From the sequence record HE978309: DNA of 64,000 nucleotides. One strand, given 5' to 3'. The position numbers and the translations under genes were made by a program. This DNA comes from Enterobacteria phage GEC-3S. How positions within the stretch are numbered: position 1 is the first letter of the stretch; the number at the start of each line of letters is the position of its first letter. Positions 58,079-61,815 of this stretch are shown here, one piece after another. The notes beneath the pieces were generated by a model, which saw only the letters and a program-made list of their open reading frames with translations, was not told where the DNA came from and did not search any database.

Positions 58079-58735
58079 ATGCAAGTTTCTGAAAAAGGGA
58101 AAGACTTTGCTATCTCAAATGTCCTGCGCGCTATTTTCACAACTAAAAGCACGGAGTTGCTCGTACTTCGTGTTTTTGCTGCCGTCGTGTTGTCCATATT
58201 GGCATTTGTCGTTTATAGTAAAAACGAGTTGTTTGCGCTTTATAAAGAGACTCGTTATGAGACTTATGCTCACATTCTCCAGGTAGAGAAAGACCGCAAT
58301 TTTGATAATGCAGCACAGGAGCAGTTACAGATAGTTCATGTGTCGGCTGATGCCGATTTTTCTGCTGTTTTTAGTTTTCGTCCGAAAAACCTAAACTATT
58401 TTGTTGATTTGGTGGCATATGAAGGAAAGTTGCCGCATACAATCGATGAAAAAAATTTAGGCGGATTCCCTATCAATAAAACGAGTGAAGAATATCGTAG
58501 GCATCTTTTAGGTAAATCATATTTTACCGATAAAGATTTCCAGTATATTCCATCAAGAGAAAAGAAATTAGAGAATATCGATATAGGTTTCATGTATTCT
58601 TGTCCTATATTCAATCTCGATAATGTCTATTCTGGTAGTATCGCCATTTCATGGAAGAATAAACCGGATATTGACATTGAGAATTTAGATACTCTTTGCA
58701 ATCAATCTGCCAGAATCCTCGGAAGGATTAGATAA
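58079..58735 (+). CDS. t: Holin T
   Basis: 218 aa; aligns with T4 holin (YETY; EQLQIVH.S.DADFSAV.SFRPKNLNYFVD..AYEGKLP; MYSCP.FNLDN.Y.G.I; ARILGR). Confidence 0.9.
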   Translation: MQVSEKGKDFAISNVLRAIFTTKSTELLVLRVFAAVVLSILAFVVYSKNELFALYKETRYETYAHILQVEKDRNFDNAAQEQLQIVHVSADADFSAVFSFRPKNLNYFVDLVAYEGKLPHTIDEKNLGGFPINKTSEEYRRHLLGKSYFTDKDFQYIPSREKKLENIDIGFMYSCPIFNLDNVYSGSIAISWKNKPDIDIENLDTLCNQSARILGRIR

Positions 58736-58740
58736 CTTAA

Positions 58741-58772
58741 AGGGGAAGCCTTTCGGCCTCCCCTTCTTTTTA
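58741..58772. terminator. Bidirectional terminator between holin t and convergent minus-strand gene
   Basis: AAA-GGGGAAGCC-TTTC-GGCCTCCCC-TTCTTTTTATT. Confidence 0.65.
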
Positions 58773-59018
58773 TTGGCGCATAGAAGCCCCTGAATCACAT
58801 TTTGACGCTGTATGATGAAAACAGGTAGCGTACCAGTCATCGGCTTGTTTGTCTTCGTCAGAAAACGCGTAATTGCGTTGTATGCCGTTTTCTACTTTGA
58901 CCAGTGCAATAGCTGTTTCTGGAAGATCAATCAATCGGACAAAATCACCATCTTCCCACTCTACACGAGCAATATCATAGCCCATCTCAAAGTATACAAT
59001 CGCTTGTTCTAATTTCAT
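58770..59018 (-). CDS. DUF2829/Tad2-like small protein (candidate anti-Thoeris sponge)
   Basis: 82 aa; N-terminal A..Y....G....R.EW and C-terminal acidic DDWY resemble DUF2829 as recalled; low-certainty motif call. Confidence 0.4.
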   Translation of the reverse strand: MKLEQAIVYFEMGYDIARVEWEDGDFVRLIDLPETAIALVKVENGIQRNYAFSDEDKQADDWYATCFHHTASKCDSGASMRQ

Positions 59019-59344
59019 TCTGGAAACTTCCCGTAAACATTCTCTGCCAGCTTACGTGCATCTTTTACAATATCTTTCATGTAGTGACTATAATTTTTAG
59101 CTAGATCAATGATGCAATCAACAAAGAAGTAATAGCGTCGCAGTGCTACCAGCTCAACATCTTCAAGATGACCATTTTCTCCAATCGCTGAAATATGTTT
59201 AAATTCCTTTCGGATCGCATCCATCGCTACATTAACTTCTTTTATAATATCTTTCGTATTATATGCACCTCGACTAATCAAAATTTTGGTTAGGTCTTCT
59301 GCTTTTTCGTGAAAGTTGTCAATTTCAAACTCGATCATAATCAC
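59015..59344 (-). CDS. Hypothetical protein (109 aa); paralog of 59453..59785
   Basis: C-terminal ...ENVYGKFPE vs ...ENIFGKF; ATGA coupling. Confidence 0.5.
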   Translation of the reverse strand: MIMIEFEIDNFHEKAEDLTKILISRGAYNTKDIIKEVNVAMDAIRKEFKHISAIGENGHLEDVELVALRRYYFFVDCIIDLAKNYSHYMKDIVKDARKLAENVYGKFPE

Positions 59345-59452: not shown

Positions 59453-59785
59453 TCAAAATTTACCGAAAATATTCTCTGTCATAATTCTTGCTTCGTCGAT
59501 TATTTTCGTCATGTTCATGGTGTAGTTATGATCATTTAATGCCTTAATGACAACGAGCAAGGAATCTAAAAACACTCGATACCGGGTATATTCTACGCTA
59601 TTTGTGAATACCGATGTTTTCTCTACTTTATCGATCAGATAGCCTAAAACCGATAGCGCCTCGTTTACTTCCCTTGTTACTTTATCGGCGCTAAACAACA
59701 CCGGATAAAGACGCGGTGTGATTAACCGCGCTGCCTCTTTCAATTCGGTCGCTTTCCATGATTCATATTTGTCATAGTTAAACAA
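59453..59785 (-). CDS. Hypothetical protein (110 aa); paralog of 59015..59344
   Basis: Similar length and C-terminal motif. Confidence 0.5.
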   Translation of the reverse strand: MFNYDKYESWKATELKEAARLITPRLYPVLFSADKVTREVNEALSVLGYLIDKVEKTSVFTNSVEYTRYRVFLDSLLVVIKALNDHNYTMNMTKIIDEARIMTENIFGKF

Positions 59786-60138: not shown

Positions 60139-60507
60139 TCACTTAACAAAGATTTTCTTTAATGCTTTCAGGATCGTTGCTTCCGGCGCTTCTTCCGGTG
60201 GAGGAAGCAATTCTACCACTTCCTCTTCCAACTCGATATAGTCTACCAGATATTCTACATAGAATGCAAGTGCTTCCATGAAATTAGATGCTACATCCGA
60301 TTCGCCACACGCGCCCACATGCATTGTATAAACATCACTGCGATCAAGTTTGTGGATGCTCCCCAGATAGTTTCGGTTATACCAGACTTCCCACACTTTC
60401 AACTTTCCGGTTTTGGTTGCTGTTTTATAATCGGTTTCGTAATGATGCAATTGACGTTGCAGATCATTGATAATAACACATTTTTCGTAATTGTTTTGAA
60501 TTTCCAT
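60139..60507 (-). CDS. Hypothetical protein (122 aa), acidic C-terminus
   Basis: ORF with GAGGAT RBS. Confidence 0.5.
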   Translation of the reverse strand: MEIQNNYEKCVIINDLQRQLHHYETDYKTATKTGKLKVWEVWYNRNYLGSIHKLDRSDVYTMHVGACGESDVASNFMEALAFYVEYLVDYIELEEEVVELLPPPEEAPEATILKALKKIFVK

Positions 60508-60517
60508 GATGTAATCC

Positions 60518-60709
60518 TCACTTATCGTTAAGAAGTTCTAAAACTTTCTGTCGTACTTTGTCAATATTAGTTGATTCAAAAACTGTACGGTATCCCCAAC
60601 CTTGACCGTATGATCGCGAGCAATCCCCATATCCCCATTGTTCAACCTGATAGTATTCAAGGAATTGGTGCTGCCGAACTATGATACCATCGCGATTAAA
60701 AATTACCAT
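60518..60709 (-). CDS. Hypothetical small protein (63 aa)
   Basis: ORF with GAGGAT RBS. Confidence 0.4.
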   Translation of the reverse strand: MVIFNRDGIIVRQHQFLEYYQVEQWGYGDCSRSYGQGWGYRTVFESTNIDKVRQKVLELLNDK

Positions 60710-60732: not shown

Positions 60733-61014
60733 TTATTTTCGGTTGTAATTCTGCCACTTTCGGTAATACTGCTTGTAATATTGTTTAATGTTTGGTGGTT
60801 CGTCACTATACATGTTATCAACCATCATGTCAATAAGACCTTCCGGTGTTTGATAGTTACCCGCTCGAATGAGTTCCTTAATCAAAAGATCTTGTGTCGC
60901 TTTATACTTGACAATAACAACTGTCTTTTCTGCCTTTCCAATTCCGATCCGGTCGTTAGCTCTCATAGCATCCCACCAATCTTTTTTAAACTTCATGTTG
61001 TTAAATTTCATCAT
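60733..61014 (-). CDS. Hypothetical protein (93 aa)
   Basis: ORF abutting upstream secreted-protein gene. Confidence 0.45.
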   Translation of the reverse strand: MMKFNNMKFKKDWWDAMRANDRIGIGKAEKTVVIVKYKATQDLLIKELIRAGNYQTPEGLIDMMVDNMYSDEPPNIKQYYKQYYRKWQNYNRK

Positions 61015-61815
61015 TTAACCCTTCTTATATTCGCAAACATATTGAGTACCATAATCATAGCTAATGCGACCTTTCTCGATGACTTCAAAGCGGATTTCAT
61101 CGTTTTCCCCTACCCACATTTTGTACTCGTTGAAGTATCCTGCTACATCCGGTTTGCTCATACCAACAACCATATTTTTATATTGTTTGCTGCGTGTCAG
61201 ATTTGATTTAAACACTTCGCGCTCATCAACATATACGAAAGAAGACAATTCACCTTCGGTCATGGTCATTTTCAGCTTGCCGCCCTTGTTGCCATAAGTA
61301 GAGTTGCCATACAATGGATCTTTGCGGCTGTCTGTTTCAATACCATCAATGATTTTCCATGTAAATTTTGCAATGCACTGATAAGTGATAGATCCAGAGA
61401 TTTTCTCTTCTTTCTTCTGTTCTTCCACCACTTTTTCTTCCTGTTTCGGCTGTTCTTCTTCAACCTTCACGGAAGTCTCTGAATCGATTTCTGACGCGGT
61501 TTCTTCTTTAGGTAATACATTCATCAAGTTTTGGATTTGAGCGTTATATACAGCCTCCAGTGGCTGGATCTGCCCGATATTGATCATTGTATCACGAACA
61601 GTTTTATTCCAGTTGCGTTGCTCTTGTTTAAGAGACGGATCAATCTTAACAGCCTTAACATATACTTCATGAAGTTTCGAATCCAGTGCGGAGATTGACT
61701 CATTAGCACAAATAAACTTCTCTGATTTGGTAGTAGCTTTAGCGCAATCAAAGGACGCAGCATTAGCACCGAAAGCAGTAGCAGAAAGAACGATAGCAGC
61801 GATAATGTTTTTCAT
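61015..61815 (-). CDS. Secreted protein with DUF1311/LprI-like N-terminal domain
   Basis: Signal peptide MKNIIAAIVLSATAFGANA; FDCAKATTKSEKFICANESISALDSKL pattern; own promoter. Confidence 0.6.
   Translation of the reverse strand: MKNIIAAIVLSATAFGANAASFDCAKATTKSEKFICANESISALDSKLHEVYVKAVKIDPSLKQEQRNWNKTVRDTMINIGQIQPLEAVYNAQIQNLMNVLPKEETASEIDSETSVKVEEEQPKQEEKVVEEQKKEEKISGSITYQCIAKFTWKIIDGIETDSRKDPLYGNSTYGNKGGKLKMTMTEGELSSFVYVDEREVFKSNLTRSKQYKNMVVGMSKPDVAGYFNEYKMWVGENDEIRFEVIEKGRISYDYGTQYVCEYKKG

Follow-up and report, generated by a model that had tools for sequence, protein, structure and literature searches.

A divergent, minimal Tad2-like protein encoded beside holin t in Krischvirus phages, a candidate sponge for a nucleotide-derived immune signal

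What is encoded by the small gene that faces holin t in Krischvirus phages, and what might it do for the phage? RB49-type phages are classical, genetically tractable phages of E. coli, and Krischviruses are frequent in E. coli phage collections. We analyzed a 64,000-nt stretch of Enterobacteria phage GEC-3S (the window), which is part of the genome of a Krischvirus, an RB49-type, T4-like coliphage. A first-pass annotation had described an 82-aa ORF in this window, convergent with holin t, and had proposed that its product resembles DUF2829, the family of the Thoeris anti-defense protein Tad2. The ORF is present in the ORF list, on the minus strand, and the two genes do converge (Table 1). The protein, MKLEQAIVYFEMGYDIARVEWEDGDFVRLIDLPETAIALVKVENGIQRNYAFSDEDKQADDWYATCFHHTASKCDSGASMRQ, is 100% identical to RB49p255 (NP_891826.1, 'RB49ORF253c'), which carries the label 'hypothetical protein' in GenBank. 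Over the 2.8 kb surrounding the gene, identity to RB49, JSE, Phi1, Cognac and some 50 further records is 98.6-99.0%.

Table 1. Coordinates of the Tad2-like gene, its parts and the adjoining elements in the window
Feature	Position	Strand	Basis or remark
Tad2-like CDS (PF11195/DUF2829), 82 aa	58770..59018	-	ATG start; stop codon 58770-58772 inside the coordinates
Folded core, residues 1-68	58815..59018	-	AlphaFold2: helix 1, five strands and helix 3
C-terminal tail, residues 69-82	58773..58814	-	Predicted disordered; poor ortholog conservation
Codons E20-W21	58956..58961	-	W21 is the counterpart of SPO1 W25 (ligand-stacking Trp), invariant in 59/59 aligned sequences
Codons Y50-D56 (YAFSDED)	58851..58871	-	Counterpart of the 'W-L-A-S-Q-T-D' pocket segment; alignments
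Codons D61-W62, invariant 'DW' opening the last strand (SPO1 D84-W85)	58833..58838	-	59/59 aligned sequences
Holin t	58079..58735	+	Pfam Phage_holin_T, 206.7 bits
G+C-rich hairpin inside the 34-nt spacer separating the Tad2-like gene from holin t	58739..58766		RNA fold; TB34 annotation
ATGA overlap: Tad2-like start codon with the stop codon of the 109-aa gene upstream (59015-59344)	59015..59018	-	Sequence and ORF coordinates
Strong sigma-70-like promoter (tentative), nearest upstream on the same strand, TTGACA-17-TATAGT, 11/12	60805..60833	-	Consensus scan

Purifying selection acts on the Tad2-like gene. Each of the 57 phage records with this region encodes the protein, and amino acid identity is 97.6-100%. 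Relative to the allele of Shigella phage SSG23 there are 10 synonymous and 2 non-synonymous substitutions (pN/pS 0.05), and the adjoining holin t has a pN/pS of 0.06. The ORF is a real gene and not a chance reading frame. A plus-strand ORF antisense to it (58812-59012) was rejected as non-coding: substitutions track the minus-strand frame, and the ORF matches the chimeric C-terminus of P0002, an 83-aa protein from a 3785-nt ENA contig. P0002, which corresponds to 58812-59018 of the window, matches the Tad2-like protein over residues 1-64 in phmmer, and it was rejected as a natural allele; its C-terminus is an opposite-strand translation of the same gene and looks like an inverted-repeat assembly chimera.

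A word-indexed homolog search with the Tad2-like protein returned near-identical proteins only. In an exhaustive phmmer scan of 1.8 billion representatives, two diverged orthologs were recovered, P0004 (58% identity) and P0005 (49%). Three further matches, the long repeat proteins P0003, P0007 and P0008, were rejected as spurious sums over multiple stretches. Both ortholog genes occupy the same place in T4-like contigs, where they converge on a holin t gene of 85-88% identity. With orthologs at 49-58% and the holin at 85-88%, the position of the gene has been kept and its sequence has diverged much faster than that of the holin. The faster divergence is common to the Tad2-like gene and its early-gene neighbors, whose identity in these contigs goes down to 35-57%.

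The sole relative found outside T4-like phages comes from the Klebsiella phage VLCpiP4a (N4-like, Schitoviridae), where a 68-aa protein is encoded between two tail protein genes (L003, 3953-4159). It is 44% identical over 55 aligned residues and shares the pattern 'DW...Y..T.SDK..DW'. On PF11195 it scores 21.0 bits, under the cut-off of 25.

The proposed kinship with DUF2829 held up when profiles were used. The Krischvirus protein matches PF11195, now 'Tad2-like' and formerly DUF2829, with 27.9 bits (gathering cut-off 25; E 3.4e-6), and residues 1-63 align collinearly with HMM positions 1-71 of 73. Scored separately, the two T4-like orthologs reach 26.1 and 25.5 bits on the same profile, again full-length and collinear, and SPO1 Tad2 reaches 85.8 bits. 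The residue pattern from which the kinship had been read is present in its elements (A6..Y9, G13....R18, R18.E20W21 and D60D61W62Y63), with one correction: Y9 and G13 are spaced by three residues, not four. When the subfamily was aligned by hhalign to 51 canonical Tad2 proteins, positions 1-66 matched 5-91 collinearly over the whole domain at E 6.8e-4, with a probability of only 26.9%. Neither the single protein in phmmer nor a 4-sequence profile matched a Tad2 chain of the PDB at E up to 10, none of the pairwise comparisons with 21 Tad2 proteins tested in a 2025 screen was significant, and NCBIfam holds no model for the protein. Because the sequence searches of solved structures were empty, the link to Tad2 rests on the Pfam profile, hhalign and the fold comparison. 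The domain assignment is not new, since the UniRef cluster is already named 'Thoeris anti-defense 2-like domain-containing protein, Tax=Krischvirus'; the GenBank records are without this label. No literature pairing RB49 or Krischvirus with Tad2 or Thoeris was found, and the sequence is absent from the supplementary tables of a screen of 84 sponges, Table S1 being covered in part (10.1101/2025.08.24.671296).

Two AlphaFold2 models were made. Model 1 used a 4-sequence subfamily alignment without canonical Tad2 proteins, and model 2 used a 59-sequence alignment. The Tad2 fold expected from the first-pass annotation was found: the core consists of helix 1 (residues 3-11), strands at 14-19, 26-32, 36-43 and 46-50, helix 3 (54-58) and a last strand (63-67). 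Model 1 has a mean pLDDT of 76.5, with core blocks at about 76-90, and model 2 has the same topology at 79.6. In the tail, pLDDT falls below 50 (residues 69-82 in model 1, 73-82 in model 2), and in the alignments residues 69-82 are missing from canonical Tad2 proteins and from the Klebsiella phage relative. Foldseek against the PDB returned SPO1 or Myroides Tad2 as the top eight matches, all with probability 1.00 and TM 0.54-0.62; the next match had an E of 0.9. In BFVD, ranks 2-20 are mostly named Tad2-like or DUF2829. The assignment is supported as one of family and fold membership only, and the Krischvirus protein is a peripheral, divergent and minimal member of the Tad2/DUF2829 family.

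A different identity was considered from T4 synteny only, as the gene next to t in T4 is AsiA. AsiA was rejected, as no AsiA Pfam match was obtained at E up to 1 and the model is alpha+beta, whereas AsiA is all-helical.

SPO1 Tad2 (gp34.65; PDB 8SME/8SMF/8SMG, 8WJE) is the founding member of PF11195. Like it, the Krischvirus protein is a small stand-alone phage protein in which helix 1 and helix 3 accompany an antiparallel sheet of five strands, and the two share the invariant A and R, the W that precedes strand 2, S..D in helix 3 and D-W in the last strand. They differ in overall sequence (about 18% identity, with no pairwise significance) and in the phage that carries the gene, here a T4-like phage with a Gram-negative host. 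The Krischvirus protein also has a 14-residue disordered tail and lacks SPO1 residues 36-59, which comprise an insertion and helix 2. In the model, strand 2 is joined to strand 3 by a turn of about three residues, and in the alignments SPO1 residues ~36-59 face a gap. The insertion is likewise missing from other short DUF2829 proteins, so we regard its absence as a trait of the subfamily and not as grounds for exclusion.

The insertion between strands 2 and 3, with helix 2, contributes to a V-shaped dimer, and it contributes to a second pocket in HgmTad2 (10.1101/2023.11.15.567273) and MoTad2. It is long in HgmTad2/AcrIIA7 (PDB 8KBI-8KBM) and MoTad2/ModTad2 (PDB 8V3E, 9EIB), and the second pocket binds cyclic dinucleotides in HgmTad2 (10.1101/2023.11.15.567273) and cUMP in MoTad2. 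This second binding mode is unavailable to the Krischvirus protein, because only the short turn is present there.

The primary pocket is kept in part. In SPO1 Tad2 the ligand is contacted by W25, N26, W73, S76, T78 and D79 (10.1101/2023.05.01.538930). In HgmTad2, mutation of W21/N22 or S90/T92/D93 abolishes gcADPR binding, and N22-G23 holds the diphosphate (10.1101/2023.11.15.567273). MAFFT alignments place W21, E22, Y50, S53, E55 and D56 of the Krischvirus protein at the six SPO1 positions. A6, R18, W21, D56, D61 and W62 are invariant across the Krischvirus subfamily and the canonical clade, and S53 is also kept here. With W21, Y50 and D56 at ligand-contact positions, the pocket retains its aromatic and Asp core.

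Around this core the pocket has been remodeled. E22 replaces the phosphate-contacting N26 of SPO1, D23 replaces G27, and G24 stands at the position of the conserved K28, which is lost; the motif 'GWNGK' becomes 'EWEDG'. In the second segment, W73 is replaced by Y50 and T78 by E55, S76 and D79 correspond to S53 and D56, and 'PWLASQTD' becomes 'NYAFSDED'. Among the three T4-like orthologs W21, D23, Y50, F52, E55, D56 and K57 are invariant. The protein as a whole is strongly acidic, with a net charge of -8 (SPO1 Tad2, -3) and a pI of 4.5; its orthologs range from -8 to -10. The characterized sponges SPO1 Tad2, MoTad2, HgmTad2 and Tad2_68/70/71/76/79/82/83 have net charges of -3 to +1, and the pockets of known sponges are reported as almost always strongly positive (10.1101/2025.07.12.664507). 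The subfamily-specific K41 and R48, together with the invariant K57, might compensate the acidic charge.

The setting of the gene fits an early operon. The Tad2-like gene is the last in a string of tightly packed small leftward genes that runs from topoisomerase gene 52 towards t. The ATGA that it shares with the 109-aa gene upstream suggests that the two are co-transcribed and translationally coupled. Folding energies of the hairpin in the spacer are -23.6 kcal/mol (z -4.5) for the minus strand and -17.5 (z -2.0) for the plus strand; the hairpin is marked as a terminator in the record of phage TB34, and it is probably a bidirectional intrinsic terminator. The nearest strong sigma-70-like site upstream is a tentative candidate for an early promoter of the leftward string. 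Each of the four best such sites in the region (at least 10/12) is a minus-strand site; overall, the consensus scan shows no excess of sites over shuffle expectation. Because the count is not above that of shuffles, early expression of the gene is read from its position.

Other features of the leftward region were also noted. Directly upstream of the Tad2-like gene are two diverged paralogs, both phrog_9457, of 109 aa (59015-59344, minus strand) and 110 aa (59453-59785, minus strand), which are 37% identical across their C-terminal 43 aa (E 8e-8). In ECD7-type Krischviruses there is only one copy, so the copy number of phrog_9457 varies beside a conserved Tad2-like gene. The 122-aa protein encoded at 60139-60507 (minus strand) belongs to phrog_1594, its ortholog in contig L006 has a Pfam Phage_T4_Y16F match, and in the RB49 record the protein is described as similar to a 12.8-kDa protein from the asiA-motA region of T4. 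From these matches and the RB49 note, the block is syntenic with the asiA-motA region of T4. Within a 63-aa ORF (60518-60709, minus strand), 87 nt (60514-60600) are 88.5-89.3% identical to rV5-like phages such as slur16 and V18, with which there is no other relatedness in DNA; this may be an exchanged short gene segment. Finally, the 266-aa product of 61015-61815 (minus strand) has a signal-peptide-like N-terminus and matches Pfam LprI (lysozyme inhibitor) over residues 24-77 with 24 bits (cut-off 22). In RB49 this exported, lysozyme-inhibitor-like protein of a T4-like phage is labeled hypothetical.

What could a protein of this kind do? We favor, with a probability of roughly 0.55, a homo-oligomeric sponge that is expressed early and takes up a nucleotide-derived immune signal. 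The gene, at the end of the leftward early-type string from gene 52 to holin t, would probably be expressed early. Its product would assemble into a homo-oligomer, as the solved Tad2 proteins do, and W21, Y50, S53, E55 and D56 would line pockets where protomers meet. These pockets would sequester the nucleotide-derived signal of a host TIR/Thoeris-type (or related) defense, and the effector would never be switched on. Early expression, oligomerization, sponge activity and the identity of the ligand are what we infer here. Given the remodeled pocket and the absent insertion, the ligand need not be 3'cADPR, and binding of cyclic dinucleotides in the manner of HgmTad2 is unlikely.

The fold, the family, the conservation of pocket positions and the fixation of the gene in the genus support the sponge reading, and the ATGA overlap, the tight packing, the terminal hairpin and the same-strand sigma-70-like promoters fit an early operon. 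Precedent is a further support. Tad2_72 and Tad2_79 have non-canonical pockets, yet they inhibit Thoeris I/IV or CBASS (10.1101/2025.08.24.671296, Table S2). T4 Vs.3, which is TadIV-1, is a sponge for a TIR signal in a T4-type coliphage (PMC13243611). With Vs.4 (Acb2), Vs.3 exemplifies the small early sponges of Straboviridae coliphages, and a like role is proposed for the Krischvirus protein; the two T4 proteins have unrelated helical folds, belong to other families and are encoded at a different genome position. No Acb2 homolog was found within the window.

Against the sponge reading stand the place of the protein at the edge of the family, the acidic residues at phosphate-binding positions, the loss of the conserved K of 'GWNGK', the net charge of -8, the absence of helix 2 and the insertion, and the inactivity of some divergent homologs. 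Tad2_69 and Tad2_78 inhibited none of seven systems (10.1101/2025.08.24.671296). [quoted passage not shown] Of the tested homologs it is the one that by eye most resembles the Krischvirus protein. Like the latter, Tad2_80 is short and without the insertion, has an acidic 'LEWPDDG' in place of 'GWNGK' and a residue other than Trp at the W73 position, and matches PF11195 (29.9 bits). The two are not closely related (E 0.04 when phmmer was run on a set of 22 sequences), and Tad2_80 is of environmental virus origin.

These same observations bear on the possibility that the Tad2 fold has been re-used for another early role, such as binding to a protein of the host or the phage, to a cation or to some other small metabolite; the acidic surface itself would then be functional. 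The charge of -8 to -10 is maintained across the orthologs, the acidic replacements fall exactly at phosphate-binding positions, several divergent Tad2 homologs are inactive against seven signaling systems, and the Klebsiella N4-like relative is encoded between tail genes and not in an early or anti-defense region. However, the residues invariant in the subfamily (W21, Y50, E55, D56 and K57) line the canonical pocket and do not form a new surface patch. No other function of DUF2829 has been demonstrated, the anti-CRISPR claim for AcrIIA7 was not reproduced (10.1101/2023.11.15.567273), and negative results in seven systems do not span all signals. We consider such a re-use unlikely, at about one chance in four.

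A strictly canonical Tad2, that is, a tetramer that binds 1''-3' gcADPR (3'cADPR) like SPO1 Tad2 and acts against type I Thoeris, is less likely than a sponge whose ligand is left open. The shared fold and family and the retention of the key aromatic W21 with S53 and D56 speak for it. Most Tad2 homologs tested in the founding study inhibited type I Thoeris, and the gcADPR site is reported to be conserved in about 99% of the Tad2 proteins analyzed (10.1101/2023.11.15.567273). But it is at this site that the Krischvirus protein departs: the diphosphate-contacting N-G is E-D, W73 is Tyr, T78 is Glu and K28 is lost. [quoted passage not shown] A role of the SPO1 type is therefore improbable in our judgment, perhaps one chance in five.

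A chance ORF or a decaying remnant without function, which the short length of 82 aa, the 'hypothetical protein' label and a Pfam score near the cut-off might suggest, is effectively refuted by a pN/pS of 0.05, equal to that of the essential holin, by presence in 57/57 related records, by orthologs of 49-58% identity in the same position and frame, by the confident fold prediction and by a start codon coupled to the upstream gene.

More speculatively, the Krischvirus protein could form a minimal, strongly acidic Tad2 clade together with its T4-like orthologs and the N4-like Klebsiella relative. The remodeled pocket of this clade, with E-D for N-G, Tyr for Trp and an invariant E55-D56-K57, would bind a signal that has so far not been linked to Tad2, perhaps from an enterobacterial defense, or would bind through a bridging metal or cationic moiety, unlike the positive pockets of known sponges. 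We regard this as a long shot.

The presence of a Tad2-family protein in these phages is not in itself surprising; its interest lies in the combination of a divergent pocket with a tractable E. coli phage. Because the pocket departs at the residues that hold the diphosphate, the ligand of the Krischvirus protein would be a test of how much retuning the Tad2 scaffold allows. If the protein proves inactive, it marks a limit of prediction from a PF11195 match. If it is a sponge, it could be used as bait for a messenger that is yet to be identified. The fixation of a Tad2-family gene in the genus implies steady pressure on these phages from signaling defenses, TIR/Thoeris-type or related, and if this is so the protein would be a counter-defense candidate to set beside Acb1, Acb2/Vs.4 and TadIV-1/Vs.3 of T4.
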